Of a DNA stretch of 64,000 nt, positions 7,651-48,531 are shown piece after piece. The stretch lies in the NCBI GenBank assembly GCA_029261895.1, contig JAJDAK010000011.1:3424-67423 (forward strand), read 5' to 3'. Position numbers and translations under genes: made by a program. This DNA is from Deltaproteobacteria bacterium. GTDB lineage: Bacteria > Myxococcota_A > UBA9160 > SZUA-336. The notes beneath the pieces are model-generated. The model did no database searches. It was not told where the DNA came from and worked only from the letters and a program-made list of their open reading frames with translations. Every line of letters begins with the position of its first letter. Within the stretch, counting starts at the first letter, position 1.

Positions 7651-8300
7651 GGGTTTGGCTGCGCGACAATAACGACGAGCGTTCCAAACAAAAACCGCTG
7701 CTCGTGATGGATACGAAACCCGGCGCCCGTAATTTCTTCGACAAGATTGGGAATCGGTCGTGACACTGAACCGACCCAGAACCAACCCAACAAGGCTTGC
7801 GGAACACGCATGAAGGCAAATGTAATGCGTGCAAACACGCCAGATGGGCGCACTTCGTCGGCGATAACCAACAATCCACCGGCGCGAATACATTCGCGCG
7901 CGGACTTGAGCACGTGGTGACGCTCTAGACGCGAGAGTTCAGAGAATGCAAAACTTGCAACGACGGCATCGAACTCTCCGGGTTCAAACTGATCGACCTC
8001 GGCAGCGGTTTGTTCGAGCCAGCGTAAGTTTTGGGCATCCACGAGACGTGTTTTTGCAATCGCAAGCATCTCCGGATTCTGGTCCAGCGCCACCACACGG
8101 GCACCGCGAGCCACCAGCTTCGCCGTAAGCGATCCCGTACCACAACCGATTTCGAGTACGTGAGTTCCGTGCACCGATACCGCAGCGTCTGCGACCGCAC
8201 GATGTATCCGTCTTGCCCGTCCCAACGTTAGTATGTTCATACCCACGTCGTAGCGTTCGGGCGTCGACTCGAGCCATCGCATCAGCGCAAGCGAACTCAT
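7647..8300 (-). CDS. Class I SAM-dependent methyltransferase (Methyltransf_11/25-type)
   Basis: 217 aa. Motif I is VLEIGCGTGSLTAKLVARGARVVALD. The gene has 4-nt ATGA overlaps with the upstream TetR (8297..8300) and the downstream HgcAB-like gene (7647..7650). Confidence 0.8.
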   Translation of the reverse strand: MSSLALMRWLESTPERYDVGMNILTLGRARRIHRAVADAAVSVHGTHVLEIGCGTGSLTAKLVARGARVVALDQNPEMLAIAKTRLVDAQNLRWLEQTAAEVDQFEPGEFDAVVASFAFSELSRLERHHVLKSARECIRAGGLLVIADEVRPSGVFARITFAFMRVPQALLGWFWVGSVSRPIPNLVEEITGAGFRIHHEQRFLFGTLVVIVAQPNP

Positions 8301-8878
8301 GCTGCTAGCACCTTGCGAACACTCATCACTAAGGCTGTTTCAAGTCCGCCGATATCATCAAACGCTCGCCGATCCGCCAGGTACTGCAGAAGCAGACCAT
8401 CCATCGACGCGATCAAAAACGACGCCGTCCAAACTGAATCGAGGTTCGAATCAATCGATCCATCGCGCTGGCCTTCAGCGATCACCTCGGCGAGCAATTG
8501 ACGAATACGCCGAAAAAAATTTCGAAAGTCCAATGCTCGCAACGTGTGCAGGTCGAGCGTGATCGATCCGTTCCGCGACCAGGCTTCAAAGACGTGGCTC
8601 ATTCCAGTCATCAACTGCTCGATACGGCGCGTCGATTCGCCTTTCGACTCCAAGACGCCCCGGAATAGCTTTTCTTCGCTCTCGAGGAGATCACGCGCGA
8701 TGTCGCGAACCAACGACGACTTGTCGGGGTAGTAGTGGTACAGACTTGATCGACCCATACCGGCCGCATCCGCCACCGCGGCAAGCCCGGTGCCTTTGAT
8801 ACCCCGACGTCCAAACACACGCCGAGCGGCAGTTCGAATCTCGGCTTTCTGCGCCACACCATCGACGATCTTTGGCAT
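8297..8878 (-). CDS. TetR/AcrR-family transcriptional regulator
   Basis: 193 aa. The N-terminal helix-turn-helix is RRVFGRRGIKGTGLAAVADAAGMGRSSLYHYYPDK. It is the first gene of the TetR-MTase-HgcAB-like operon. Confidence 0.8.
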   Translation of the reverse strand: MPKIVDGVAQKAEIRTAARRVFGRRGIKGTGLAAVADAAGMGRSSLYHYYPDKSSLVRDIARDLLESEEKLFRGVLESKGESTRRIEQLMTGMSHVFEAWSRNGSITLDLHTLRALDFRNFFRRIRQLLAEVIAEGQRDGSIDSNLDSVWTASFLIASMDGLLLQYLADRRAFDDIGGLETALVMSVRKVLAA

Positions 8879-8890
8879 TGCTTCCTCGTT

Positions 8891-8908
8891 TTCGACAGTA
8901 TTGTCGAA
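8891..8908. promoter_or_regulatory. Inverted repeat TTCGACA-GTAT-TGTCGAA, a candidate TetR operator, 13 bp upstream of the TetR start
   Basis: 7-bp arms read directly from the sequence (ttcgacagtattgtcgaa). It lies in the 91-bp gap between the amidohydrolase stop (8970) and the TetR start (8878). Confidence 0.35.
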
Positions 8909-8969
8909 ATAAACCCAACGGTCAATCGAAACATCTCAGTGATTCGAATCGAGGGATCGCCCGGGCGGG

Positions 8970-9788
8970 CTATGAATTGCGCGAAAAGAAGAGCCGCTTC
9001 GCGTTCATGTAGAGATACTTGTCGAGCACGCCTTCGCGCAGATCGAGCCCAGCGGCTTCTTCAAGACAGCGCACCATCGAGAGTGCTGGGTGGTCGGAAG
9101 CAAAGATCACTTTGTCCTGGCCGCGCGTATTCATGTAGTGGATGAGCTCGGGCGGAAAATACTTTGGCGCGTACGCACTGGTCTTCAGATACAGGTTCTT
9201 ATATTTCAGCATCAACCGAATGGCTTCCTGCCACCAGGGGTCGGTGCCATGCGCCATCACCAGCTTCAACTCCGGAAAATGAAGGCATACTTTGTCGAGG
9301 TGCATCGGGTGCTGACATTCGCCGGGCACAGGCGGCCCAGGAATCCCCGTGTTGATCGTCACCGGTAAATCGAGCTCGATGCACTTGGCATAGACGGGAT
9401 AGTAAATCGGATCGCACCCCGGTCGATCGATCCAGAACGGCGTGACCCGCGCGAGAACGACCGGATAATTTTCCGCGAAACTCTCGAGCGCCCGAATGAC
9501 TTTCATCCCGCGGCGAGGATCCACCTGCGCGCCCAGCGAAAAGCGATCGGGATGGGCCTTGGGAAATGCGAGCACGTGGTCCGATGGCCGCTCGGGCTCC
9601 GTGGTGACGATCGCGCGTTCCACTCCCAAGCGATCCATTTCCTCCACGACTTCCTCGACTGAGTAATCGCGAAAAAAATCTTCGCCGCCATTGAACAGGT
9701 CTTCCGCCACGCGCACCAGGTAGTCGGGGCGGCCCAACTCGCTCATGTTGACGTTGATCCAGGTATCGATCGCCCGGAGATCAGTCAT
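8970..9788 (-). CDS. Amidohydrolase-2 family metal-dependent hydrolase (ACMSD/LigJ-like)
   Basis: 272 aa with PF04909-like features (HGTDPWW..., a C-terminal FASDHP motif). It overlaps the Rieske oxygenase gene by 8 nt. Confidence 0.7.
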   Translation of the reverse strand: MTDLRAIDTWINVNMSELGRPDYLVRVAEDLFNGGEDFFRDYSVEEVVEEMDRLGVERAIVTTEPERPSDHVLAFPKAHPDRFSLGAQVDPRRGMKVIRALESFAENYPVVLARVTPFWIDRPGCDPIYYPVYAKCIELDLPVTINTGIPGPPVPGECQHPMHLDKVCLHFPELKLVMAHGTDPWWQEAIRLMLKYKNLYLKTSAYAPKYFPPELIHYMNTRGQDKVIFASDHPALSMVRCLEEAAGLDLREGVLDKYLYMNAKRLFFSRNS

Positions 9789-10752
9789 CGCCGCGTAGAA
9801 TTGGCACGCTGAAAAACTGCTTCATCCAGCGTCGGTAGGTACCAATCTGGCCGTCTCCATCGCAGAGCAGTGGTCGGCTGTAGTAGTGCTTGTTCTCCCA
9901 AATGACGATGTCCTCCGCCATTTGTTTTTCCAAGTCTTTAACCAGCGCCGCTCCCACGCCCCGAGTGGCCGAAACCCCGTCGACCTCACGTACCGCGTAC
10001 GCGAAACTCACGTCAGTTGTGTCTTCATCAATCGGCGTTGAGGTATTGACCATCAAAGTTTCCGCGATTCCCGAAACATCAACGGTTTGCAACCCCGGCC
10101 CATAGTCCGTCGTATCGATCCCACCAGTGATCTCACCCTGCGGCGTACCCATCTTCATACGCGATCGGCAACGCAGAATATGACCGTCGATGTCGACTTC
10201 GGTCTCGGGAGACGTATGCGTGCCGTGCACGTAGCGGAAATGAATTTGATCGACAGCGTTCTCGTTCATATCCAGCCAACGACTCTTCACCGTCCAGCGT
10301 CGGATTTGATACGGCGACCATTCCGAAGACCCACATTGCCATAGCTCGGGCACCTCATACGAAGGCGGCTCGTCCTGATCGTGATACCAAGTAAAGAGCA
10401 AGCCGTTACGTTCGACCAAAAGCCATGCACGCATCTTCGCCGTACGAGGAATTTTCTTCGCATACGGAATCTCGATACAGCGCCCTTCTCCATCCCAGAG
10501 CCATGCGTGGAACGGACAGCGAATTCCCTTGCCATCTACCGTACCTCCAAAACCGAGATGCGCGCCCAGGTGAGGACAGTGCGCGTCGAGCAGATGTGCC
10601 TCGCCTTCTTCATCACGAAAGAGCACCAGATGCTGACCGAAGTAGTGCAACGCTTTGACCTCGCCGGCCGCGATGTCATCCGCATACGCGATGCGAAACC
10701 AACCGTTCGCATAGGCGGGAAACGGAAAACGTTGAGAAATCTGACGATCCAT
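9781..10752 (-). CDS. Rieske [2Fe-2S] non-heme iron oxygenase alpha subunit (phthalate-dioxygenase/KshA/VanA-like family)
   Basis: 323 aa. Rieske motif CPHLGAHL...CPFHAW, followed by a catalytic domain. Confidence 0.8.
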   Translation of the reverse strand: MDRQISQRFPFPAYANGWFRIAYADDIAAGEVKALHYFGQHLVLFRDEEGEAHLLDAHCPHLGAHLGFGGTVDGKGIRCPFHAWLWDGEGRCIEIPYAKKIPRTAKMRAWLLVERNGLLFTWYHDQDEPPSYEVPELWQCGSSEWSPYQIRRWTVKSRWLDMNENAVDQIHFRYVHGTHTSPETEVDIDGHILRCRSRMKMGTPQGEITGGIDTTDYGPGLQTVDVSGIAETLMVNTSTPIDEDTTDVSFAYAVREVDGVSATRGVGAALVKDLEKQMAEDIVIWENKHYYSRPLLCDGDGQIGTYRRWMKQFFSVPILRGDD

Positions 10753-10803
10753 CAGATACGACGATATCTGTGGTGCGTCCGCAACGCAAGCGCTTTTCCG
10801 TGG

Positions 10804-11985
10804 TTAGGAATCGAAAAGTACCGGGACGCGATCGGGACCCCGAAACATGAGACCCACCACCCCGCATTGCTGGTCCAGATCGAGCCGAAGGCCAGGCAAG
10901 CGTTCGAAGAGCGCGCGCATGCCGATCTCCGCCTCCAGATACGCCAGGCGAGATCCCGCGCAATAGTGCTTCCCGAAGCCAAACGCGATGTGATCTTTGG
11001 CATCGCGATGGATGTCGAAACGAGCCGCGTCTTTGAAGTGTGATTCGTCGCGGTTCGCGGAACCGATCCCTACCAAGACTTGAGAACCGGCTGGAATCAT
11101 CGTGCCGGCAATCTCCACGTCCTCCAATGCCCGACGGGTCACGAGCTGCACCGGAGACTCCCAGCGCAGTCCCTCATCCAACGCAGGCCGCAGCATGTCG
11201 GGTACCTTGAGAACTTCATCGAACTGCGCAGGATCCCGGAGCAAACCGAGAAACGTGGAACCCATCAGATGATACGTCGTCTCCGCACCCGCGAGCACGA
11301 GCAGTCGGATGAAGCTCACGATCTCCTCTTCCGTCATCCGCTCACCGTCGATCTCCGCGTGGACCAGCCGTGTAATCAAGTCATCGGTCGGCTGCTGTTT
11401 TCGTTTTTCGACGACGGGACGCAGGTAGTCGGCCATACGTTGGGACGCTTCAAGACCACGATTCGCATCCACGGTAACGTGCGTGAGCGAAATCGCCCAG
11501 CGATGAAATTCGGCAACGTCGTCCACGGGCAAACCAAGAAGTTCGATAAATACTTTCAACGGATACACGAACGTAAACGCTTCCACCAAATCCGCCATGC
11601 CGTCATCAGCGAACTGATCAATCAGCTCATGCGCGATCGACTCAACGAGTTTTGGGAAGTCGCCGCGCAGCGCTCTCGGGGCTAACGCGGGTGTCACGAT
11701 ATTTCGATGCTTGAGATGCTCTTCACCATCCATCGCCACGATGGTGCGCCCCATCACCAGACTGATCCCTACGTCATTCGAGCTATTGGAAAACACCCGA
11801 TCGTCACGAAGCGCACGCGCTACATCGTCGTAGCGCGTGATGAGATACCCGTCGCCACCAATGGTTTGTATTTTCAGCACGGGGTGATCGCGTCGAAGCC
11901 GGGTATATGCCGAAAAAGGATCGCGCACCGCATCGAGTTCGCTGCCACCAAATACATCGATAAATGTCGGCGCGGCATCCGTCAT
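10804..11985 (-). CDS. Cytochrome P450 monooxygenase
   Basis: 393 aa. Heme-binding loop FGFGKHYCAGSRLA. ATGA overlap with the upstream TetR. Confidence 0.85.
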   Translation of the reverse strand: MTDAAPTFIDVFGGSELDAVRDPFSAYTRLRRDHPVLKIQTIGGDGYLITRYDDVARALRDDRVFSNSSNDVGISLVMGRTIVAMDGEEHLKHRNIVTPALAPRALRGDFPKLVESIAHELIDQFADDGMADLVEAFTFVYPLKVFIELLGLPVDDVAEFHRWAISLTHVTVDANRGLEASQRMADYLRPVVEKRKQQPTDDLITRLVHAEIDGERMTEEEIVSFIRLLVLAGAETTYHLMGSTFLGLLRDPAQFDEVLKVPDMLRPALDEGLRWESPVQLVTRRALEDVEIAGTMIPAGSQVLVGIGSANRDESHFKDAARFDIHRDAKDHIAFGFGKHYCAGSRLAYLEAEIGMRALFERLPGLRLDLDQQCGVVGLMFRGPDRVPVLFDS

Positions 11986-12584
11986 GACAATGTCCTTCGC
12001 CCTTGCTGCGGTGCTTGAGCGATCAGCCGATAGACGGTGCCTAAGCCTTCGGCTGGATCGTCGGCTTCAGGACTGGGAAAAATCAACATCGAGAGCAACG
12101 CGCGGGTGATCCAATCCACCAACTGGCCGACACTCACTTGGCCACTCACCACGAGGCTCGTGTCCTTCAAGAGCGGGCCCATCAAACCCAGCAACCCATC
12201 GCGAATCAACGGAAACTCTCCGCGCAGCCACTCAAACATCAGCGGCATGTCGGTCTCGCGCAGGCGATTAAGAACAGGGTGCGCACGCATGTAGCGCGCG
12301 GTTTCGTCGAGCACATACTGAATCGCGTCCTCGCTCTCATCAATCGTCTCGAGTAGCTCGATAATCCGAGCGCGGTAGCGCTCGACTTCGTGCTCTGTCA
12401 GTGACGCGTAGACGGCGTCGCGGGTCGGAAAGTAACGGTACAGCGTGCCGCGTGAGACTCCCGCCGCGGCACTGATTTCACCCATGCTGAGCTTGCTCGC
12501 ACCATGGGTCGCGATAGCGCGCAAGGCCCCGGCGAGAATACGTATTCGGGTCTTTGGGCGTAGCTCAGGACTGCTGGATTCCAT
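11982..12584 (-). CDS. TetR-family transcriptional regulator
   Basis: 200 aa. N-terminal helix-turn-helix is ILAGALRAIATHGASKLSMGEISAAAGVSRGTLYRYF. A short ATTTG-T-CAAAT palindrome lies in the 36-bp upstream gap. Confidence 0.8.
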   Translation of the reverse strand: MESSSPELRPKTRIRILAGALRAIATHGASKLSMGEISAAAGVSRGTLYRYFPTRDAVYASLTEHEVERYRARIIELLETIDESEDAIQYVLDETARYMRAHPVLNRLRETDMPLMFEWLRGEFPLIRDGLLGLMGPLLKDTSLVVSGQVSVGQLVDWITRALLSMLIFPSPEADDPAEGLGTVYRLIAQAPQQGRRTLS

Positions 12585-12620
12585 AGGTCAAATTGAACAA
12601 AATATGCCTAATTTGTCAAA

Positions 12621-13865
12621 TCAGCTCGAAGCGCCATCCAGGCCGTAGTCGAAGAGCACCTTCACGGCGGAAGTTCTGCCCTGCCGATAACAGGTCAGAA
12701 AGGCTCGGCTGTAATCCTCGAGCGCAAAGCGATGCGTAATGATCGGCGTCACGTCGATATGCTTGTCGCGGATGAATTCGAAATACCATTCCATCGCGTG
12801 CTTGCGTCGCCCCTCGTATTCCTCGGTCGCGAATGCATTCGAGCCAATCACCCGCAGTTCTTTAAAGTAGAGCGGCGTCCACTCGAATCGCTTGGGCGTC
12901 TCAACGCCGGTCACCACGATTCGACCCCGTGGTCGTGTGATCCGTACACCAATTTCCAAGGTTTCCGCTTTGCCGACCGTGTCATAGATCAGGTCGACTC
13001 CACCATTGATCATCGGAAGCCCACGCCAGGGCGTGTAGAGTTTCTGTTCCAATAACTCGGCGACGTTCTCGACCACTTCATCCTTGGGCCAGTGTTTTAT
13101 GATCTTCTCTGCACCGAACTTTTCGGCCAGCACTGCTTGATGGGCGAACCGTGCGACGGCAAACACACGCACCGTTGGAAAGAGCGCATGTAAAATGGTG
13201 ATCGTCAGTAACCCTAAGGTGCCGCAGCCATAGACCAATGCAACGGAGTCCGCTTGTGGTGGATCGCGAAGCACCGCATGCAACGCCACGGCAAAAGGAT
13301 CCGCGAGAACCGCTGAGCTATCGGAGATGTGATCCGGAATTGGAATACATTGCGATTCGTGCGCAGGAACGAATTTTGCGAACCCGCCCGTCGCTTGCAC
13401 ACTATTGCCGTGATGCAAACCTGCATCGATTGAGCCGTTGGTGAAATTCAAACACTGCGCGAACTCACCGCGTTGACACCAATCGCAGAGCGGCAAGCCA
13501 CGGGGTATGCAGGACAACCATGGATTCAACACGACCCTTTCACCGATGCGACGGCGTGTAACACCTGGCCCCACCCGCTCGATCGTACCGACGACTTCAT
13601 GACCCAATACCTGTGGGAATGAGATCAACGCCGTCATGGGGTTGTCCGAGGCACCGTTCAAGAAGACCTGTTTGGAATCGCTACCGCAGATCCCGCAGAG
13701 GTGCGTACGAATCACCACCCAGTCCGCAGCGGGTACGACCGGATCGGGAATCCGGCGCAATTGAAGCGGCGCTGTTGGGCCCACGTACGCGCCGGCCGTA
13801 AACAAACCGAGTGCACGGGTCGTCGCAAGTCGCGGCAATCTATGATCAAAGACCAGTGCACGCAT
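12621..13865 (-). CDS. Zn-dependent alcohol dehydrogenase (MDR superfamily)
   Basis: 414 aa. Catalytic-zinc region CGICGSD...GHEVVG. Confidence 0.75.
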   Translation of the reverse strand: MRALVFDHRLPRLATTRALGLFTAGAYVGPTAPLQLRRIPDPVVPAADWVVIRTHLCGICGSDSKQVFLNGASDNPMTALISFPQVLGHEVVGTIERVGPGVTRRRIGERVVLNPWLSCIPRGLPLCDWCQRGEFAQCLNFTNGSIDAGLHHGNSVQATGGFAKFVPAHESQCIPIPDHISDSSAVLADPFAVALHAVLRDPPQADSVALVYGCGTLGLLTITILHALFPTVRVFAVARFAHQAVLAEKFGAEKIIKHWPKDEVVENVAELLEQKLYTPWRGLPMINGGVDLIYDTVGKAETLEIGVRITRPRGRIVVTGVETPKRFEWTPLYFKELRVIGSNAFATEEYEGRRKHAMEWYFEFIRDKHIDVTPIITHRFALEDYSRAFLTCYRQGRTSAVKVLFDYGLDGASS

Positions 13866-17134: not shown

Positions 17135-17395
17135 TAACTGCGTATGCTTTGCATGGCGGTGTTTTGACTCAAGTTCCACCAACGTCATCCCGATGTAGGG
17201 CATGACCAATACGACACATAACAGTGTCCGCCATCAGGTGACAGAACTCCTTAAAATGGTTCTGTCCCACGAAATGGCAAACCCGTCGTAATACGGGGAC
17301 GCAAAGCCAGTGCCCTACCGCGGTAGTCTTCGAATATCGCGCGGGTCGAACGGTTGGCGAATGGGTCAGATGATGAACTGCATTGAAGGAGATCT

Positions 17396-17591: not shown

Positions 17592-18284
17592 ATGAAGCGA
17601 ATTGCCTGTTTGATCGGTGCGGCGTATTTCCTATCGTCTGCCGCTGCGGCCGAATCACTCCGCGTTACCGAGCCACTCTCGATTACCGAACAAGACTGGG
17701 AATTCGTTGCCAAGAAGAACGGCATCGTGGTTTCCCAGCGACTCCACCCTGATGGTTTTCCCATCTTCCGTGGCGTCACGACCCTCGATGCGAGTCCGTG
17801 TGCATTGCTCGCTGTGATGCACGATGTCCCGCGTCATACCGAGTGGATGGAGCGATGTGCTGAGTCCAAGACGTTGAAGGTCGAATCGAAGTATCGTCGA
17901 ATCGTTTACAACCGGACCGACCTGCCCTGGCCTGCTGCCGATCGCGACACTGTGACACGTTCAATCGTGCGTGTGATCAAAACCGCGAGCACGATCGACC
18001 TTGAGTTTAAAGCGATACCAGACGTTCTAGATCCAATCGAAGATGTGGTTCGCATGCCCCGCCTTGAGGGGCGGTATCAGCTTCGTTCGACCGATCGGGG
18101 AACCGAAGTTACATATCAGGTTGCGGCGCATCCGGGTGGCCGTATTCCGGGCTGGCTCGTCAATCAGATCGTGCGGTCGATGCCGATCAAGACGCTAAGC
18201 CGACTGCCGGAGCAGGAAGCGAAACATCATGAGACCTATCAGTCATTTCGCGAGGAGTGTCAGGCCTGGCCTGCAACCAAGTAA
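17592..18284 (+). CDS. Secreted START/SRPBCC lipid-binding domain protein
   Basis: 230 aa. N-terminal signal peptide MKRIACLIGAAYFLSSAAAA. The START-like block is DVPRHTEWMERCAESKTLKV...RSIVRV. Confidence 0.6.
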   Translation: MKRIACLIGAAYFLSSAAAAESLRVTEPLSITEQDWEFVAKKNGIVVSQRLHPDGFPIFRGVTTLDASPCALLAVMHDVPRHTEWMERCAESKTLKVESKYRRIVYNRTDLPWPAADRDTVTRSIVRVIKTASTIDLEFKAIPDVLDPIEDVVRMPRLEGRYQLRSTDRGTEVTYQVAAHPGGRIPGWLVNQIVRSMPIKTLSRLPEQEAKHHETYQSFREECQAWPATK

Positions 18285-39914: not shown

Positions 39915-40880
39915 TTAGTGGAGCGTGTCCTTCAGCTCTTCCGCGGCCTCATAGATACGCTTCATCTGTTGCTCGTTGAGGCCGAGCAATTCCCGTGCTT
40001 CGTCGAGCACTCGTTCCGGCGTCCGGTCGACACTCGATAAACCGGTCAGGCACGCGACTTCGACTTCGCTGACCCCTTCCGGCGTCTCATCCTCTCCCGG
40101 CACCACGCCCAGTCCCAACTCGTGCGCGATGTGATCTGCGAGCGCGACCGTGGCGGCCATGGGATGTCCTTGACCGTCGATCTTGACTCGGTGGTGTGCG
40201 CTTACAACGAGCTGAATGTCCAGCGGCAGATCCCAAAACTTTGCCATCAGAACGCCGGCTTCATGATGCATTCGGTGGATACCTGGCCAGACAGAGATCA
40301 GGTCAGGTCGCTTCCACTTGCCATTGGGTTCACTGAGCGCGACCAGCGTTCCCGCGATGCCGACATCGTGCATCAGGCCACAGAGAAACGCGAACTCACC
40401 CTCGATCGAAGTGTACTTGCAAATCGTTCGGCAAAGATGTGCCGTGAACGCGCTATGACGGCGCAGGCGTTCCATCGTGTCGGTGTACGCATCGGATCGA
40501 AAGACGCGCATGTTCATCGAAACTTCAATCACGATGTCACGCAACGTGTTAAGCCCTAGGCGCACAACGGCGTTTTTCAGTGAGGTGATCTCCACGGCGC
40601 CACAGTAAATCGGTGAGCGAACCAGCTTGAGCACTTTGCCCGCAAGCATGGTGTCTTGTTCAAGTACAGCTACGACTTCTTCGAAACGAACATCCGGTTT
40701 TTGCGAGAGTTCCATCAACTCCATCGCAACTTTCGGCAACGTGGGCGGCCGGTAACCTGGCGCGGTAAAAATCTCGAGTAATCGACCGGTGAATTCGTCG
40801 TCCGCGATCAGCGCGTCGTCATCATCCGAGAGCTGAACCTGTCCCTCTCCGTAGCCCTCATCTGTTTTTCGCTTGCCCAT
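39915..40880 (-). CDS. HDOD-domain signalling protein
   Basis: ORF track 39915..41009 (TTG start). The ATG at 40880 is my preferred start. HD-related motif LCGLMHDVG. Confidence 0.6.
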   Translation of the reverse strand: MGKRKTDEGYGEGQVQLSDDDDALIADDEFTGRLLEIFTAPGYRPPTLPKVAMELMELSQKPDVRFEEVVAVLEQDTMLAGKVLKLVRSPIYCGAVEITSLKNAVVRLGLNTLRDIVIEVSMNMRVFRSDAYTDTMERLRRHSAFTAHLCRTICKYTSIEGEFAFLCGLMHDVGIAGTLVALSEPNGKWKRPDLISVWPGIHRMHHEAGVLMAKFWDLPLDIQLVVSAHHRVKIDGQGHPMAATVALADHIAHELGLGVVPGEDETPEGVSEVEVACLTGLSSVDRTPERVLDEARELLGLNEQQMKRIYEAAEELKDTLH

Positions 40881-41077
40881 AGAGGTCGTCTCGCCGTTTT
40901 CTGCGCCAATCTTGAATGTCCCGGCATCGATCCAGACTCGGAAGTGCTGAGCATTACCTATCCTATTGAATTTAATAGACTTTTCTACTTTCCGACTGGG
41001 CGGTGTCAACCCAATTGCGGGCTCTGCGTTCTATCTCCTAGCAGCCCGGATTTTCGGGCGCAAAGGAAGGGACCAAG

Positions 41078-41503
41078 ATGAAGTACGGAATTGGGGCCGC
41101 AGCCCTTATGGGCGTGATAATCGGACCGCTTCATGCGGATGCGAGCGATGGGCATCGCATTGAGGATCGCTTTGATCGCAAGGGCGACAGAATTGAACGC
41201 CGCCTCGACCGCAGGGGTGATCGCATCGATCTGCGTCTGGATCACAAAGGCGACCGCATAGAAGCTCGTTATGATCGAAAGGCCGACCGCGCCCGCGCGC
41301 ACGGCAAGGATCGGTTGGCGAATCGCCTCGAGCGCAAGGGCGACCGCATCGATCGGCGCCTTGATCGCAAAGGCGATCGCATTGATCGGCGTTTGGATCG
41401 TCGCGGCGATCGTGCGGACCGACGTTGGGACCGAAAGGGCCGAAGGCACCAGCGCCACCACAACCGTCGGCATCACCGACGGCATTACCGTCGGCATCAC
41501 TAG
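41078..41503 (+). CDS. Secreted repeat protein: about 9 tandem decapeptides (RLDRKGDRID consensus) and a His/Arg-rich C-terminal tail
   Basis: 141 aa. Ribosome-binding site AGGAAGG. Signal peptide MKYGIGAAALMGVIIGPLHADA. The tail is RRHQRHHNRRHHRRHYRRHH. Confidence 0.6.
   Translation: MKYGIGAAALMGVIIGPLHADASDGHRIEDRFDRKGDRIERRLDRRGDRIDLRLDHKGDRIEARYDRKADRARAHGKDRLANRLERKGDRIDRRLDRKGDRIDRRLDRRGDRADRRWDRKGRRHQRHHNRRHHRRHYRRHH
41160..41450 (+). repeat. 30-bp tandem coding repeats (about 9 units) inside the repeat-protein gene
   Basis: Visible periodicity of gatcgcaaaggcgatcgcattgatcggcgc-like units. Confidence 0.55.
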
Positions 41504-41624
41504 ACCCGGCAAGGGCCTGCGCACATTGGATGGACTGTGCGCAGGCCCTTGAGGCAGACTAAAGTGATTCAGAATTTATCAGGGGGATGCCGCGCTGTCC
41601 GACACTCAGGCGCTGAATCGTTTC

Positions 41625-42128
41625 TTGGCCGGAATCGAACGGCGCGCGTTTCGGATTGCCGAAATCTCGGTGGGCGATCGCGAGGACGCACTCGATATCG
41701 TGCAGGACGCGATGTTCAAGCTAGTCGAGCGCTATCGTGATCGCGACGAATCGGAATGGCGCCCCCTGTTCTACAAAATACTGCAAAGCCGAATTCGAGA
41801 TCGTTATCGTCGAACGGCGGTTCGAAATCGTCTGCGCGGTTTCTTTTCCCGCGGCGATTCCGCAGACGAGGATCCGATCCAAACCGCCCCAGACCCGAAG
41901 GGCGAAACACCGGAGCGGCAGCTCGAGCAGACCCAGACCATGGACTCGATCGACCAGGCATTGCGAACCTTGCCTACGCGACAACAACAAGCTTTTCTAC
42001 TTCGGGCATGGGAGGGGATGGCCGTCGCCGAAACCGCGGCGGCCATGGGATGTTCCGCAGGTAGCGTAAAAACCCACTATCATCGTGCCGTACATGCGTT
42101 GCGAGCCATACTAGAGAGCACGGAATGA
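41625..42128 (+). CDS. ECF-type RNA polymerase sigma-70 factor (RpoE-like). The true start probably lies about 30-50 nt upstream at a non-ATG codon.
   Basis: ORF track TTG start. Region 2 reads ALDIVQDAMFKLVERY...WRPLFYKILQSRIRDRYRR and region 4 reads AFLLRAWEGMAVAETAAAMGCSAGSVKTHYHRA. The in-frame upstream stretch SDTQALNRFLAGIERRAF looks like sigma region 2.1 but has no ATG or GTG. Confidence 0.7.
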   Translation: MAGIERRAFRIAEISVGDREDALDIVQDAMFKLVERYRDRDESEWRPLFYKILQSRIRDRYRRTAVRNRLRGFFSRGDSADEDPIQTAPDPKGETPERQLEQTQTMDSIDQALRTLPTRQQQAFLLRAWEGMAVAETAAAMGCSAGSVKTHYHRAVHALRAILESTE

Positions 42129-42469
42129 GTCGAAATCGAGACGAAGAAGAATTCACAGATCGTGTGAAGGCGAAGCTGGACCAAACGGCCGACCCGCTCG
42201 ATGCGAATACGCTCACGCGATTGCAGCAGATTCGTCTCGCTGCTCTAGCACGCGCGGAAACGGAGAAACGTCCACGCAGCTGGCTGCCCGTGGGTGGGGT
42301 CTTGGCGGCGACAGCTGCGTTAGCACTTTTCCTGCTCAACAAGGACTCGATTCCAAACGCTGAGCTTGATGCGAATGAGCTCGACATCCTCGCTTCGAGT
42401 GACGAAGTCGAACTGTACGAAGACTTAGAATTTTACCAGTGGCTGGACGCCGACGAAGAGCAAAGCTAA
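42125..42469 (+). CDS. DUF3619-like single-pass membrane protein, putative anti-sigma factor
   Basis: 114 aa. ATGA overlap with the sigma stop. One TM helix (VGGVLAATAALALFLL) and an acidic C-terminus. Confidence 0.5.
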   Translation: MSRNRDEEEFTDRVKAKLDQTADPLDANTLTRLQQIRLAALARAETEKRPRSWLPVGGVLAATAALALFLLNKDSIPNAELDANELDILASSDEVELYEDLEFYQWLDADEEQS

Positions 42470-43060
42470 ATGGCTCGCCCTCCTGTTACTCATACTGGCT
42501 CCGTACGTGGTCACAAGAGCTGCGGGTTCCTGCTCGTTGGGCTGCTGGTTTTCGCGACCGTGGCGAACGCCGACGAGGCCGTGCCTTGGGAATCTTTGAG
42601 CGAATCCGAACGCGAAGTATTGGCACCGCTAGAAGAGACATGGTCCGAGCTTCCGGCAAAACGTCAGCGACGTTTGCAACGTGGAGCGGCGCGTTGGGAG
42701 ACGATGGACAAGGGTGAACGCGACGGTGCGCGTAAAAAGATGCAGCGCTGGCGTGGCCTTTCAGCTGAGAAACGACAGCGCATACGCCAACGCTTCGATC
42801 GTTTCCAAAGCCTGCCAGCTGAAACCCAGGAACGTTTACGAAAGCGTCGGCGCTGGTTCCAGAGCTTGCCCAAAGAGCGCCAAGATAAGTTGCGGGAGAA
42901 ATGGCGCGGCATGACGGCAGAGGAGCGTCGGGATACTGCGAGAAAATGGAATCAGAAACGCCGAGAGCGTTTGCAGAAGAAAAAACGCTACAAGAAGAAG
43001 CTCCGACAGCAGCAGCGTGACCAGAAACAGCAGCGCCGTCAGGGCCGTGACAGCGAATGA
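42470..43060 (+). CDS. DUF3106-family periplasmic repeat protein
   Basis: 196 aa. Signal/TM segment, then repeated W..L.PE.R..LR..W motifs (WSELPAKRQRRLQRGAARW; LSAEKRQRIRQRFDRFQSLPAETQERLRKRRRWFQSLPKERQDKLREKWRGMTAEERRD). Confidence 0.6.
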   Translation: MARPPVTHTGSVRGHKSCGFLLVGLLVFATVANADEAVPWESLSESEREVLAPLEETWSELPAKRQRRLQRGAARWETMDKGERDGARKKMQRWRGLSAEKRQRIRQRFDRFQSLPAETQERLRKRRRWFQSLPKERQDKLREKWRGMTAEERRDTARKWNQKRRERLQKKKRYKKKLRQQQRDQKQQRRQGRDSE

Positions 43061-43449
43061 GCGAACGCGCCACCGGTTTCCTGCTCTGGCTTATCTTCGT
43101 TTGTGTGCTCCCGCTACCGTTCTTTCTGGTCGTAACGGGTTGGGTTCCCGTCTGGCGGCTATTTCAACTCAGTACCGCACTTGTCGAGGTACGGATCGAG
43201 CAAGGGGGTCAAGGAGCGATTGACTTCGCGCTCGTGATCTTACTCACGCAGGCGGTCGTCGGGACAATGCTATGGGGGTATCTCGCAAAACGCGCCGCGG
43301 CCTTATTGCCCAACTCGACGCGCATGAGATTGATCAGCGTTCTTATGATCGGCGTCGTGTCATTCACGCTCGCGAGTCAATTCGACGTCTACGGCACGCC
43401 TTTCAGGCAAAAGGCGTTACGTGGGACCCTGCTTGAGGTCGCGGAGTGA
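43057..43449 (+). CDS. Small integral membrane protein, function unknown
   Basis: 130 aa with 4 hydrophobic segments. 4-nt overlaps with both flanking genes. Confidence 0.45.
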   Translation: MSERATGFLLWLIFVCVLPLPFFLVVTGWVPVWRLFQLSTALVEVRIEQGGQGAIDFALVILLTQAVVGTMLWGYLAKRAAALLPNSTRMRLISVLMIGVVSFTLASQFDVYGTPFRQKALRGTLLEVAE

Positions 43450-45248
43450 TTCGCAAGCTCTTCGGCATCTGGATGCTCGTACTATTGCCGCTCGGTGCCC
43501 CTGCAGAACCGCAACGTTGCGATGACTATAACGCCGAACGGAACGCCTACTTCGGCGACACCCACGTTCATACCGCGCTCAGCTTCGACGCAAACGCATT
43601 GGGCGTGCGCAACACGCCCTACGATGCGTATCGCTTTGCTCAGGGTGAACGTGTCGGCCTACAGCCCTACGATCCCAACGATCGCCCGCTTCGTTCGGTA
43701 AAGCTTGGGCGACCGCTCGACTTCGCCATCGTCACAGATCACGCGAGTTTGCTAGGTGAGATTCGACTTTGCCAACAGCCCGACTCGGGAGCGCACGAAT
43801 CTGCGGTCTGCCGGTTGTATCGACGCTGGCCGCTCCTCGCTTACTTCGTGGTCAACAGCCGGACATTCAACGTAGCCAACCCGATGCGCTACTCGTTCTG
43901 CGGAGAAAACGGTCAGCTCTGCCGCGATGCGGCCGCGGCACCGTGGAAAATGATCCAAGACGCGGCGGATGCGGCAGATGATCCCTCCCCTATGTGTCGT
44001 TTCACCAGTTTTGTTGGTTACGAATGGAGTGGCGGCCCCGAATCCAAAATGATTCACCGTAATGTGATCTTTCGGAACCGGGTCGTTCCGGACCATCCGG
44101 TCGGCTATATCGACGAACCCACAGTCAAGGGCTTATGGTCATCGCTTCGCAAGAATTGTCTCGACCGGGATAACGGCTGCGACGTACTCACAATTCCTCA
44201 TAATTCAAATTTAAGCGGCGGCCTACTCTTTCAACATTCACCCGCAGATGCGAAAGAACGTGCCTTCTTCGAACCTCTCGTTGAAATCATGCAGCATAAG
44301 GGCGACTCGGAATGTAGTGTTGAGACCAGCCCAACCGAAGACGAACTCTGTGGTTTCGAAAAACTTCCCTTCGCACAGATGGATCAACAACCCTTTAAAT
44401 TTCTTTGGTCGCAAGCGAACTCGCAAAGTTACGTACGCGATGCACTCGGACGCGGCTTGATCGAAACTCAAAACGGCCGCGCCAATCCCTTCAAGTTTGG
44501 CATCATCGCTTCCACCGATTCGCATCTGGGTACCCCCGGGCTGGTGGATGAATCCGCTTATCCCGGGCACGGTGCCGGCGGCGATACGAGTCGGGTTGAA
44601 ATCGCGGCACGTCCTGACGCGGCCGAGTTCAACCCGGGCGGTCTCGCGGTGGTCTGGGCGGAAGAAAACTCCCGCGAGGCGATTTTTAAAGCCATGCGCC
44701 GTCGCGAAACCTATGGCACGAGTGGCCCTCGCATTCGGCTACGTTTTTTCGCGGGGAGCGGTCTCGCTGAGGACCTCTGTGAACGCTCCGATTTCGTAAG
44801 TCAGGGTTATGCCCATGGCGTGCCGATGGGTGGCACGTTAAAGCTGGAGCCTGGCGGGGCGGCGCCACGCTTCGCCGTCTGGGCGGGTCAGGATCCCGAC
44901 GGCAACCTCCTGCGGAAAATCCAAATCGTTAAACTCAGTGTTCGTGGCGACGAAATCTTAGAACGTGTGCATGACGTGGCCACCCATCCGGGTCAGGAGG
45001 CGAGCGTCGATCTCAACACCTGTAAGACCTTCGGCTCCGGCGCCTCCTCACTTTGCGCCGTTTGGCGCGACCCCGACTATCAAGCACACGAACAGTCCAC
45101 CTACTATGTTCGCGTGCTCGAGAACCCCAGCTGCCGCTGGACGCAGCACCTCTGTATTCGTAATCCTAACGCCTGCTCGGACGTGCCGCCGATCCAGCAA
45201 GAGCGTGCGTGGAGTTCTCCTATCTGGCTGGGCAATCCGGTACACTAG
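43446..45248 (+). CDS. Secreted DUF3604-like protein (PHP-type metal-dependent phosphoesterase fold predicted)
   Basis: 600 aa. Signal peptide, then YFGDTHVHTALSFDA close to the N-terminus. Confidence 0.55.
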   Translation: MIRKLFGIWMLVLLPLGAPAEPQRCDDYNAERNAYFGDTHVHTALSFDANALGVRNTPYDAYRFAQGERVGLQPYDPNDRPLRSVKLGRPLDFAIVTDHASLLGEIRLCQQPDSGAHESAVCRLYRRWPLLAYFVVNSRTFNVANPMRYSFCGENGQLCRDAAAAPWKMIQDAADAADDPSPMCRFTSFVGYEWSGGPESKMIHRNVIFRNRVVPDHPVGYIDEPTVKGLWSSLRKNCLDRDNGCDVLTIPHNSNLSGGLLFQHSPADAKERAFFEPLVEIMQHKGDSECSVETSPTEDELCGFEKLPFAQMDQQPFKFLWSQANSQSYVRDALGRGLIETQNGRANPFKFGIIASTDSHLGTPGLVDESAYPGHGAGGDTSRVEIAARPDAAEFNPGGLAVVWAEENSREAIFKAMRRRETYGTSGPRIRLRFFAGSGLAEDLCERSDFVSQGYAHGVPMGGTLKLEPGGAAPRFAVWAGQDPDGNLLRKIQIVKLSVRGDEILERVHDVATHPGQEASVDLNTCKTFGSGASSLCAVWRDPDYQAHEQSTYYVRVLENPSCRWTQHLCIRNPNACSDVPPIQQERAWSSPIWLGNPVH

Positions 45249-45282
45249 CGCCAGCATTTTTTCTCAGAGCTAGGGAGGACTG

Positions 45283-45759
45283 ATGAGTACAACGATCGCT
45301 TCGCCTTCACCGATCGACACAAGTCTTGTTTCGTACGACGCGATTCCTTGGGCCGAGCTCATTCCTGGAATTGAAATCCGCATGCTGAGAACCGGGGAAG
45401 GCTCTGGAACCTACACGGTAATGAGTCGTTTTGCGCCAGGCACGGTTCTGCCCAAGCACTACCATCTGGGTTGCGTGCATGCGTATACGATTTCAGGCGA
45501 GTGGTTTTACCAGGAATACGATTGGGTCGCCGGTCCGGCGTCCTACATCTACGAACCCCCGGGGTCGACGCATACACTGGCGGTGGCAGACGCTGCCACT
45601 GAGCCCGCAGTAATCATCTTCGTGATCGATCAAGGCATGGAAATCTATGGCCCCAGCGGTGAGGTGCTCACTGTTGAGACGGCCGAAACAATCACCCAGA
45701 TGTATCGTGATGTGCTCAAGACAAAGGGGATTCCACTGCCGACTGGAATCCTCCCCTAA
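45283..45759 (+). CDS. Cupin-fold protein, 2,4'-dihydroxyacetophenone dioxygenase (Dad)-like family
   Basis: 158 aa. PKHYHLGCVHAYTISGEW. Confidence 0.55.
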   Translation: MSTTIASPSPIDTSLVSYDAIPWAELIPGIEIRMLRTGEGSGTYTVMSRFAPGTVLPKHYHLGCVHAYTISGEWFYQEYDWVAGPASYIYEPPGSTHTLAVADAATEPAVIIFVIDQGMEIYGPSGEVLTVETAETITQMYRDVLKTKGIPLPTGILP

Positions 45760-45773
45760 CTCGACTTTGGGTT

Positions 45774-46868
45774 CTACGAATCCCCGCCCACCCGAGCGAG
45801 CTCGGCATCAATGACGCGCGTGAACGCGCTCAGCGGTTGTGCACCCGAGAGCGGAATCCCGTTAATGAAAAAGTGCGGTGTACCGTTTACGCCTGCCGCT
45901 GCTCCCGCTTGAGTGTCCACATTCACCTGCTCAGCAAAACGATTCTCACTCACGCAAGCTTTGAAGCCGTTGAGATCCAGACCCGCTTTCTCGGCCACTT
46001 TTTCTAGATCTTCCGCCGCGAGACTTCCCCCCACGTCGGTGAAAATCAACTTGTGATATTCCCAGAACTTCCCCTGGTCATCCGCACAGGCCGCAGCTTC
46101 CGCCGCAGGCTTTGCGCGCGCGTGAAACTCCAATGGATAGTGGCGGTACACCAGGCGGATCTTGCCCTTATAGCGCTCCATCACCTGCTTGACGGTGGGC
46201 TCAGCGCGCTTGCAGAACGGGCATTCGTAGTCGCTGAATTCCACCAATGTAATCGGAGCATCCGCGGGTCCCATCGAGGGTCCGGTTGGATCTACCGGAA
46301 TTCGCGGCGGTTCGATATTGACCGCAACCCCCGCGTCCACGCGCAAACCGGAGACAAACTTTTCAATCGACTCGCCACGACGCAGCTGACCGAGATAGAT
46401 GCCGATTCGCTCAGACATGTCGTCGAAACTCGCTTCACCGAATCGCTCAGCGTTTTCTTCATAGAAACTCTGCACTTCTGCTTCGGTTACCTCACCCACC
46501 TTCTCGGATTCGCGCGTGAGTAGCTCCTCCGCTGTTAACCCTTCTTTCGCAGCCGCAGCCTCGATCAAGCGCTTTTGGATCAGTCGATCCAAACCGGTGG
46601 ATCGCAGTTCATACAGACCCGACTCATCCAGTTCTTCCGTCTGTTGTTCCCAGAGTTCTTCTTTGAGATGGGTGGTGAGTTCGGCCTCGCTGATCGGAAC
46701 CCCGTTCAACTCTGCGACAATGGTGTTACCGCTTTCAGCGATCGATCCGGCTGCAGCTGCTTCTGGATTGGAAGCATCGGTAGGCGCTGAAGAATCCGCG
46801 GTCCCCTGGGGCTCACATCCGAGCGCCAGTGCGGCAATAATGAAGGCGGAGAAACACACACGGATCAT
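45774..46868 (-). CDS. DsbA-family thiol:disulfide oxidoreductase lipoprotein with an N-terminal SurA-like chaperone domain
   Basis: 364 aa. Lipobox LALGC. Thioredoxin motif EFSDYECPFCKR. Confidence 0.75.
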   Translation of the reverse strand: MIRVCFSAFIIAALALGCEPQGTADSSAPTDASNPEAAAAGSIAESGNTIVAELNGVPISEAELTTHLKEELWEQQTEELDESGLYELRSTGLDRLIQKRLIEAAAAKEGLTAEELLTRESEKVGEVTEAEVQSFYEENAERFGEASFDDMSERIGIYLGQLRRGESIEKFVSGLRVDAGVAVNIEPPRIPVDPTGPSMGPADAPITLVEFSDYECPFCKRAEPTVKQVMERYKGKIRLVYRHYPLEFHARAKPAAEAAACADDQGKFWEYHKLIFTDVGGSLAAEDLEKVAEKAGLDLNGFKACVSENRFAEQVNVDTQAGAAAGVNGTPHFFINGIPLSGAQPLSAFTRVIDAELARVGGDS

Positions 46869-46935
46869 CTGGGGGTTCCTTTCGATACGGTTTCGGAATC
46901 GCTCCGAAACGCGGCAAGAGTATCACGAGGGGTAT

Positions 46936-48531
46936 TCACCTGCTCGACACAGGCTGTAAATCCGCTTCGCCGTTCCGGTAGAGCGGTTCCATCAAGCCGA
47001 CGACGTCTGAGTTCAAATAGTCGGCGTGTGCACCGATCGGATCCAACCAGCCCAAGGTAAAGTCGACCATCGGTCGTGCAAGGTTTTCAAAGAAGATCCC
47101 CTCCTGGATCTCGTCCGAAGCGTCTACCGCGAAAGCGCCGCTACAAATCGGCAGGTGGCAGCCGTCCGCGAGCGAGCGCTGAAACTCTTCCATCGAAAAA
47201 ACCGGAGGAACATCTCGCTCGAGAATTCCGTGCGTCACAACGCGCCCAACGGATTCATGCAACACCCCAAGATTGAAAAAGCCTTTACTGCGTCGACCCC
47301 AGGGTACTTCCTTACCCGCCACGCGCGAAAGCGCCTCGACTGGAATTTCGACCAGCGGGATCTGCGCCAAGGTGTCCATCACATGATCAACGGGATGCGT
47401 CGCTAGCCCGCGCGTCTGCGTGTACGCATAGCTGATCGGTGTCGACACGATGGTAAATGCCAAACTCGCCGGAATACTCAGGACTTCGGCAAGCGAGCGT
47501 CGCAGTCGAAACCCGGTATCGCCAGGCAGAGACATATGCGGCCGCGGGATTCGAACGTTCGAATTCGGATCCATCGGTCGCATGCGCTCCGGCAGCGGCG
47601 CCTGCATGATGTCCTTCATCATATCTGCCGTGACTTCCATGGTCGACATCGTCGTATCGACTGCGGTACCCACGCCACTTTCGACGTAACTGAAGACGTA
47701 ACGCCGAAAGAACGCCTCAAAAAGCGTAAAACTAAATGCGTTCAAAGGAATATTGGCGACGGGAAACAAGAAACCGTTGGCATGGTCGTGCGCACTTTGG
47801 GTAACGAGAATCGGATACTCGGCGTCGTTGTGCAGACTCGGTCGTGCGAGCGCTGGCTGAATCATCAATGCAGCACTTACACGACTCGCACCGGCGAATG
47901 GTTCGGCTTTAACGGGGAACGGACCGAGGCGATTCTGCATCAGCCCCGACAAGACACGCGTGCCAAAACTATGACCGATCAGATACACGGGTGGCGATTT
48001 TTCGACATCGGGGTAGACGGAGGAAAAAATCACGTTGAGTGCGCTACGGAGACCCCCGAAGCCAATGCGGTCGGCCATCGCAGCTTTCGACCAAAATGAA
48101 ATCGGAAACAAGAGCTGGTCCGGAATGAAAGCGAGTGAATCCGCGATGATGGGGAGCGGAATCACATCGTTCAAAAGTTTGCGAAAACCTGTTTGTGACG
48201 AATCCCAACCAACAGCGATAACCGCGGTTTCACGGAGATCGAGCGCCGACTCCTTACTGAAGTCATCCAACAAGTGCCGATACGTCGAATACGAGACCTC
48301 ACCGTCATTCGCCCAGCCGTAACTGATGACCAAAATACGCTTGATCCCGAGATGAGCGCGCATTTCCTGAACGGCGAGTTCGACCTCGAAGGGGTCCACG
48401 AGATTTCCCCAACGATTAAAGGACAACACGTAGAGCCCGTGAAACATGGGCTCTTGCGCCTTCGCGGCGCTGGCCATCAGGCCCGCGGTCGCGATCAAAA
48501 GCACCAATAACGTGGCGGATAGATTTTTCAC
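46936..48531 (-). CDS. Secreted alpha/beta-hydrolase-fold protein (DUF900-like esterase/lipase)
   Basis: 531 aa. Signal peptide. GxSxG nucleophile motif VYLIGHSFGTRV. Confidence 0.55.
   Translation of the reverse strand: MKNLSATLLVLLIATAGLMASAAKAQEPMFHGLYVLSFNRWGNLVDPFEVELAVQEMRAHLGIKRILVISYGWANDGEVSYSTYRHLLDDFSKESALDLRETAVIAVGWDSSQTGFRKLLNDVIPLPIIADSLAFIPDQLLFPISFWSKAAMADRIGFGGLRSALNVIFSSVYPDVEKSPPVYLIGHSFGTRVLSGLMQNRLGPFPVKAEPFAGASRVSAALMIQPALARPSLHNDAEYPILVTQSAHDHANGFLFPVANIPLNAFSFTLFEAFFRRYVFSYVESGVGTAVDTTMSTMEVTADMMKDIMQAPLPERMRPMDPNSNVRIPRPHMSLPGDTGFRLRRSLAEVLSIPASLAFTIVSTPISYAYTQTRGLATHPVDHVMDTLAQIPLVEIPVEALSRVAGKEVPWGRRSKGFFNLGVLHESVGRVVTHGILERDVPPVFSMEEFQRSLADGCHLPICSGAFAVDASDEIQEGIFFENLARPMVDFTLGWLDPIGAHADYLNSDVVGLMEPLYRNGEADLQPVSSR

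Follow-up and report, generated by a model that had tools for sequence, protein, structure and literature searches.

In Escherichia coli, the tightly spaced genes rpoE-rseA-rseB-rseC encode an autoregulated extracytoplasmic function (ECF) sigma factor, a single-pass membrane protein with its N-terminus inside the cell and a periplasmic protein, while the three-component ECF system CnrYXH of Cupriavidus metallidurans combines a short class II anti-sigma factor with a periplasmic sensor. Here we describe an ECF sigma factor locus in a 64,000-nucleotide stretch (the window, to which all coordinates refer unless another locus is named) of a Deltaproteobacteria bacterium (GenBank assembly GCA_029261895.1, contig JAJDAK010000011.1, positions 3,424 to 67,423 of the forward strand). 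Its core is a triad of genes for a sigma factor of the NF006550 (PRK09047) family, a DUF3619-like protein and a DUF3106 protein, to the end of which two further genes, for a 130-amino-acid (aa) membrane protein and a DUF3604 protein, are joined by overlapping stop and start codons. In the loci compared from other genomes, the triad and the latter pair were each found conserved, and always apart. The explanation that we favour with reasonable confidence, from sequence comparison, is that an ECF module and a pre-existing two-gene cassette have been fused in this lineage, and that DUF3604 would be co-induced with the sigma factor here.

The window shares with other NF006550 loci the order of the sigma, DUF3619-like (profile PF12279) and DUF3106 (PF11304) genes (65 loci), the promoter motif, and a sigma factor scoring above the family cut-off. 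It differs from them in that (i) its leading gene, for a basic repeat protein, is common to only 6 of 81 loci, (ii) its three trailing genes (membrane protein, DUF3604 and cupin) occur in none, and (iii) the DUF3619-like gene abuts the DUF3106 gene, whereas the usual gap is 25-330 nucleotides (nt), commonly about 100-330 nt. The features of the region are the following.

41005-41030, + strand: predicted ECF-type autoregulatory promoter, GTCAACC-N14-GCGTT (-35/-10-like), recognized by a motif conserved upstream of sigma genes
41078-41503, + strand: leading gene, for a 141-aa, putatively secreted, very basic repeat protein (signal-peptide-like N-terminus; homologues next to sigma genes)
41510-41551, + strand: perfect 16-bp G+C-rich hairpin without a T tract, between the leading and sigma genes
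41595-42128, + strand: gene for the ECF sigma factor of the NF006550/PRK09047 family (profile score, relatives)
42125-42469, + strand: gene for the DUF3619-like single-pass membrane protein, 114 aa (Pfam, position, topology)
42470-43060, + strand: gene for the DUF3106 protein, 196 aa, with a signal peptide (full-length Pfam match)
43057-43449, + strand: gene for the 130-aa membrane protein, conserved partner of DUF3604 (neighbourhoods, homologue searches)
43446-45248, + strand: gene for the DUF3604 protein, 600 aa, two domains, predicted to be exported (Pfam, structural model, fold match)
45283-45759, + strand: gene for a stand-alone ChrR-type cupin (Cupin_7), 34 nt 3' of the DUF3604 gene
45774-46868, - strand: convergent neighbour, gene for a DsbA/thioredoxin-like protein with a SurA-like N-terminal domain

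Inspection of the list of open reading frames (ORFs) and of the raw sequence revealed that five successive + strand ORFs in the 41595-45248 region are joined by four tight junctions: (i) the stop codon of the sigma gene (TGA, 42126-42128) overlaps the ATG of the DUF3619-like gene at 42125 (ATGA, 42125-42128), (ii) the TAA of the latter (42467-42469) abuts the ATG of the DUF3106 gene at 42470, (iii) the TGA of the DUF3106 gene (43058-43060) overlaps the ATG of the membrane protein gene at 43057 (ATGA, 43057-43060), and (iv) the TGA of that gene (43447-43449) overlaps the GTG of the DUF3604 gene at 43446 (GTGA, 43446-43449). An earlier note on this DNA had reported the four junctions, and they were found exactly where it placed them; the extension of the triad by two tightly joined genes, visible in overlaps (iii) and (iv), and the family calls hold as well, the latter on profile scores (for DUF3619, in the N-terminal part only). 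The bounds that the note had given for the unit, 41565-45248, stood only in part: the internal junctions are as described, while 41565-41567 is a TGA in the sigma frame and not a start codon, and both the leading gene and the predicted promoter lie further upstream.

Four tight junctions in series indicate an operon, although such junctions are not unusual in bacteria. The transcription unit most likely consists of seven genes (41078-45759) behind the promoter at 41005-41030; its last member may be the cupin gene, with which it would extend to 45759. None of the seven genes has a paralogue elsewhere in the window. Transcription of the DUF3604 gene together with the sigma factor gene is thus the arrangement that we regard as probable in this organism. 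Alternatively, the pair could be expressed apart from the sigma factor, from a promoter towards the 3' end of the DUF3106 gene; the overlap would then be a matter of compact packing after a rearrangement. Elsewhere the cassette stands behind many unrelated genes, and in four loci (L002, L014, L026 and L009 of our collection) it is joined equally tightly to the unrelated gene upstream; a tight join therefore implies no shared function. The consensus scan used for promoters is, moreover, insensitive and covers only those of the sigma-70 type. That scan detected no sigma-70-like promoter between 40900 and 46000, where 2.2 were expected by chance, and there is no second ECF motif. Terminator-like sites in the same interval were at chance level (7 found, 5.0 expected), none was seen 3' of the DUF3106 gene, and the 4-nt overlap leaves no intergenic space. 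Read-through from upstream would also be expected in any case. We consider separate expression of the pair unlikely, and co-transcription with the sigma factor gene remains the preferred reading.

The comparative analysis was performed from both sides. For DUF3604, a scan of one genome per species yielded 79 further loci with up to 10 kb of each flank, from sources including Myxococcota, Binatia and gammaproteobacteria of the Halieaceae, Spongiibacteraceae and SAR86. All six-frame ORFs of the DUF3604 loci were searched by tblastn and by iterated profile searches, and no relative of the sigma factor, DUF3619 or DUF3106 was found within 10 kb of DUF3604 in any of the 84 loci. For the sigma factor, a metagenome scan with an alignment of 35 sigma relatives gave 80 loci, and neighbourhood look-ups gave three more; the triad loci were collected via the sigma factor, and a word-indexed search for DUF3106 homologues gave only two matches. 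In each of the 81 loci scanned, the ORF immediately after the sigma gene is DUF3619-like, and the complete triad is present in order at 65 of these, most of the others being cut by contig ends. This agrees with the description of the triad, in the earlier note, as a conserved module. Twenty-eight triad loci were informative for the genes that follow (26 with at least 2.5 kb past DUF3106, plus L167 and L168), and neither DUF3604 nor the small membrane protein was found downstream of the triad in any of them. The genes in this position vary: pntA (about 9 loci), nadE on the opposite strand (about 6), genes for an L,D-transpeptidase, an outer-membrane channel-like protein and SCO1/SenC, and others, among them gcvP, identified by sequence resemblance only.

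These counts (0/84 and 0/28) argue that DUF3604 is not a conserved output of the regulon. The earlier note had proposed that the secreted DUF3604 protein is what the sigma system regulates, had suggested that other triad operons be compared for the same extension, and had named absence of co-occurrence in related genomes as counting against the proposal; such absence is what was found in the loci sampled, in both directions. In its general form, with DUF3604 and its small membrane partner as the regular output of the sigma/DUF3619/DUF3106 system, the proposal must now be regarded as very improbable. The tight coupling in the window speaks for it, as does one Binatia DUF3604 gene with an exact motif upstream (see below); besides the missing co-occurrence, the variety of genes after the triad and the lack of motif enrichment upstream of DUF3604 genes (1/82 on the right strand, 1/82 on the control strand) speak against it.

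Two exact copies of GTCAACC-N14-GCGTTA were detected near DUF3604 genes. The first, in a Binatia metagenome-assembled genome (MAG; L011, 8854-8879, + strand), lies in the right orientation about 115 nt 5' of the likely DUF3604 start, and the second, in a Myxococcota MAG (L062, 1017-1042, - strand), points away from DUF3604. The Binatia site could be a real ECF-dependent DUF3604 promoter, while the two sites together are not above chance. As a sign of wider regulation the Binatia motif was rejected, the opposite-strand control being equally good.

The unit that is conserved elsewhere, separately from the triad, is the pair formed by the small membrane protein and DUF3604. The 130-aa protein contains three strongly hydrophobic stretches and matches no Pfam family. 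A full-library search gave approximately 77 representative relatives, nearly all of about 130 aa and aligned end to end, and the uniform length and end-to-end alignment therefore mark a real, previously undescribed small family. The gene was found in 24 of the 84 DUF3604 loci, among them those of all nine closest relatives, in which it immediately precedes DUF3604; a 4-nt overlap of the two genes is present in the five of these nine that have gene calls. In the three nearest DUF3604 relatives on long contigs, the stop codon of a 131-aa gene overlaps the DUF3604 start by 4 nt, and no sigma, DUF3619 or DUF3106 gene is present. End to end, the window protein shares 39% identity with the 131-aa product of the gene that precedes the closest DUF3604 gene. 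Upstream of the cassette the neighbours all differ: an epimerase, an MMPL protein, an AMP-binding enzyme, an acyl-CoA dehydrogenase, an SDR enzyme, a GH20 protein, a DUF7133-cytochrome c protein, TerC and polyphosphate kinase.

The closest DUF3604 relative (L002, 59% identity) lies in a tightly coupled run (5028-13590) of genes for a phosphodiesterase, an epimerase, the membrane protein, DUF3604, a GH3 glycosidase and a sulfotransferase. This context hints that the role of DUF3604 in that organism is related to glycans or to sulfate or phosphate esters.

That the junction between DUF3106 and the cassette is a chimera of two organisms made in metagenome assembly is unlikely in the extreme. In its favour, the named sigma relatives are from Gammaproteobacteria and Nitrospirota and the nearest DUF3604 relatives from Myxococcota and Binatia, along with Gammaproteobacteria. 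Against it, DUF3604 relatives occur in Gammaproteobacteria too, and the Logan assembly of SRR15505518, possibly made from the same reads, is identical over 7598 nt (window 40397-47994). In addition, no reading frame is broken at the clean ATGA overlap, and the G+C content is even (0.55-0.60 across 42000-44000).

The predicted promoter emerged from the sigma loci when bipartite words were counted across the 260 nt preceding each sigma gene. The conserved ECF-type motif is TGTCAACC-N14-GCGTTA; its core, GTCAAC-N16-CGTT, precedes the sigma gene on the + strand in 64 of 84 sigma loci, and only 2 of 84 DUF3604 loci contain it, one per strand. The window contains a single exact match, GTCAACCCAATTGCGGGCTCTGCGTT at 41005-41030 (0.01 expected from shuffled sequences), and a weight-matrix scan revealed no second site scoring above 10 in the window. 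The match ends 47 nt 5' of the ATG at 41078, i.e. ahead of the leading gene and not beside the sigma gene. This placement is the rule among the relatives that possess the repeat-protein gene: in six of six the motif precedes that gene and is never found between it and the sigma gene.

The leading gene encodes about nine copies of an 11-residue repeat, DRKGDRIxRRL, and the mature protein would carry a net charge of about +22; it has no match in Pfam or NCBIfam. In L086, L096, L108, L118, L146 and L164 a homologue is encoded immediately ahead of the sigma gene, and the His/Arg-rich C-terminal tail of the window protein (HQRHHNRRHHRRHYRRHH) is missing from all six. At two further sigma loci the leading position is taken by another kind of secreted, charged repeat protein. 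The DRKGDRIxRRL proteins form an undescribed family; as judged from these loci, some members of the sigma family have a gene of this kind nearest to the promoter of their ECF operon. The hairpin that follows (41510-41551) is a candidate partial terminator or transcript stabilizer. L086 (16 bp, perfect; 707-749) and L146 (23 nt, 83%; 1266-1335) have similar hairpins between the leading and sigma genes, and none is present in this interval in L096 and L118. Recurrent strong hairpins of this type, lacking a T tract, may determine how much of the first gene product is made relative to the regulators.

Second copies of the ECF motif were observed downstream of the triad at two other loci: L120 (12546-12571, + strand), 24 nt ahead of a gene for a 630-aa DUF4382 protein, and L103 (4648-4673, + strand), about 620 nt ahead of a Cache-MCP chemoreceptor gene. 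Both genes are candidate regulon members in those organisms.

The sigma factor scores 241.7 bits against NF006550 (PRK09047; cut-off 173), and both Sigma70_r2 and Sigma70_r4_2 match. Its relatives at about 60% identity number in the thousands; it is 56-64% identical to the 34 that were aligned. The named relatives are Gammaproteobacteria and Nitrospirota, and no literature on the module was found that would bear out the earlier note's remark that the triad is best known in Betaproteobacteria. The relative listed first (L167, Logan SRR15505512, 62% identity) stems from a sequencing run whose number adjoins that of the window's run, and its context is typically gammaproteobacterial (bamD, sigma, DUF3619, a small ORF, DUF3106, nadE on the opposite strand, pilS, pilR). 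The first canonical start codon of the window gene, and the one that gene callers used, is TTG at 41625. The homology with NF006550 and with the 34 relatives reaches further upstream, to about 41592, the window's ALSDTQALNRFLAG being aligned with ALDNxxxLDxFLxG at the N-terminus of the relatives, and no ATG, GTG or TTG in the ORF would include the conserved residues ALSDTQALNRF. The true start may therefore be non-canonical, either ATT at 41574 or CTG at 41595; for the latter, the conserved residues upstream are joined by a good Shine-Dalgarno sequence, AGGGGGA, 7 nt before the codon. The ECF reclassification paper PMC7826278 does not mention the DUF3106, DUF3619 or DUF3604 domains in its text, and a literature search for these three families, for PRK09047 and for the GTCAACC motif found nothing relevant.

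The match of the DUF3619-like protein to its profile is marginal (24.4 bits, threshold 22.2) and is confined to the N-terminal 42 profile positions (2-43 of 130); its positional orthologues score 21-39 bits or give no match. The protein is predicted to have a cytoplasmic N-terminus of about 50 aa, with the conserved helix LDxxTxxRLxxxRxxAL, a transmembrane segment at residues 52-72 and an acidic periplasmic tail (net charge -14.5), in which LExxEDLEFYxWL is the best-conserved motif of the family. Its position, its topology and this C-terminal motif are all conserved. Position and topology make an anti-sigma factor its most likely role. The DUF3106 protein matches its family along the entire profile (90.6 bits, positions 1-104 of 104), and the mature form is a very basic helical repeat (net charge +27). 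The possibility that its basic C-terminal tail arose as an artefact of the fusion was rejected, such tails being typical of the family. By analogy with RseB on RseA, DUF3106 may bind the conserved acidic tail of the DUF3619-like protein.

The lineage-specific fusion can then be pictured as follows. The core would be an autoregulated ECF operon of the NF006550/PRK09047 family, in which the sigma factor's own promoter (41005-41030) drives the secreted basic repeat protein, after which the hairpin may lower read-through. Next would come the sigma factor, the single-pass DUF3619-like protein as its probable anti-sigma factor, and the periplasmic basic DUF3106 protein, which may be seated on the acidic tail in the fashion of RseB and RseA. 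The pre-existing cassette would have been joined to the end of this operon by overlapping stop and start codons in this lineage only, followed by the cupin gene, so that, in this organism, transcription and induction of DUF3604 would probably go hand in hand with those of the sigma factor.

Several points weigh against this picture. The hairpin could end most transcripts before the sigma gene, in which case the sigma factor and all later genes would need an unrecognized promoter. The promoter match, exact in its core, scores 17.6, at the low end of the training set (median 30.5). For the DUF3619-like protein, which was assigned to the anti-sigma role by position and topology only, a profile search of the Protein Data Bank (PDB) gave no meaningful relative, no anti-sigma Pfam domain was detected even at E≤10, and neither cysteines nor the zinc-binding anti-sigma motif (HxxxCxxC) are present. 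A promoter within the DUF3106 coding region is possible, given the restricted consensus scan. Finally, the comparison sampled about 80 members of each of two families of more than 8000, all of them from other species.

The DUF3604 protein itself matches PF12228 with 540.2 bits over nearly the whole profile (positions 2-589 of 591), YFGDTHVHT being residues 35-43. More than 7999 relatives were found at E≤1e-10, the closest only 57-61% identical. The match to the NCBIfam CehA/McbA family is weak (18.8 bits, below its cut-off), and a sequence search of the PDB gave no match; neither there nor in the literature was a characterised relative found. The predicted structure has a predicted local distance difference test (pLDDT) score of 89.3 and a predicted template modelling (pTM) score of 0.91, and its only significant fold matches in the PDB are the two chains of 3E38 (E 5e-7, probability 1.0); the C-terminal part of the model resembles immunoglobulin-like beta-sandwiches. 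In an alignment of 42 DUF3604 sequences, H40, H42, H99, E193, H252, D358 and H360 (with HxH and DxH motifs) vary little or not at all, and all 16 cysteines of the mature protein are conserved. The model supports a PHP-like fold with metal-ligand motifs, and the signal-peptide-like N-terminus makes export very likely. The earlier note's description of a secreted, PHP-like protein is in line with these data. Taken together they fit a disulfide-bonded exported metallohydrolase, phosphoesterase activity being a prediction at the level of the fold only.

Elsewhere, the ChrR-type cupin domain is familiar from the ChrR anti-sigma factor, of which it forms the sensor half. The window's cupin gene, which is followed by a convergent gene, has its own strong ribosome-binding site (AGGGAGGA), and its product lacks a signal peptide. 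No convincing terminator was seen between it and the DUF3604 gene. Linkage of cupin and DUF3604 genes was observed in only 1 of the 84 loci, where they are 7.7 kb apart.

The unit is flanked by an HDOD gene upstream and the DsbA/thioredoxin-like gene (45774-46868) downstream, and thus by other genes than those around the triad in L167. The proximity of the latter to the region encoding the 16-cysteine DUF3604 protein may be coincidental. Elsewhere in the window, a cyclic di-GMP-I riboswitch aptamer was detected at 17266-17361 on the + strand (Rfam RF01051, 51.9 bits, gathering score 35), about 230 nt 5' of a 230-aa ORF at 17592-18284.

Because the fusion was found in one lineage only and the cassette stands behind many unrelated genes, the arrangement is weak functional evidence and says little about the general function of either family; it mostly reflects ordinary operon shuffling, and an ECF operon with added cargo genes is an unremarkable variation. 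If co-transcription does take place, the locus is a natural experiment in which induction of the ECF sigma factor should induce the DUF3604 enzyme, and it could help to give a condition of use to a very large exported PHP-fold family. A bolder view is that recruitment by the ECF system in this lineage has made DUF3604, with its membrane partner, an envelope enzyme induced by stress. Separately, the basic proteins (the leading and DUF3106 products) and the acidic DUF3619-like tail could form an undescribed charge-based envelope sensor. We give these readings little credence; the former, if true, would provide the first regulatory handle on two large uncharacterised families, the NF006550 sigma/DUF3619/DUF3106 module and DUF3604, whose relatives exceed 8000. 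By-products of the analysis are (i) GTCAACC-N14-GCGTTA as the promoter that sigma factors of the uncharacterised NF006550 family are predicted to recognize, (ii) the small membrane protein and DUF3604 as a conserved pair, and (iii) the observation that some NF006550 operons are led by a gene for a secreted basic repeat protein.

Among the systems compared, 3E38 (BVU_3505), itself functionally uncharacterised, has a predicted PHP-like metal-dependent phosphoesterase domain and shares with the DUF3604 protein the two-domain plan and the HxH and DxH motifs. The two are only 9% identical, with template modelling (TM) scores of 0.30 on the query and 0.49 on the target, and the DUF3604 protein is larger by about 250 residues and has the 16 conserved cysteines. 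The CnrYXH system differs from the window in gene order, no homology to it was detected, and metal sensing is not indicated except by the His-rich tail of the leading repeat protein; it is similar by analogy in its small single-pass protein with a short cytoplasmic N-terminus (about 50 aa) and in its periplasmic partner. The rpoE operon has a different promoter motif, and no relation in sequence or fold was found between DUF3619 or DUF3106 and RseA or RseB. In outline, nevertheless, the sigma factor, single-pass membrane protein and putative periplasmic protein of the window would be analogous to the E. coli rpoE-rseA-rseB-rseC envelope-stress operon.

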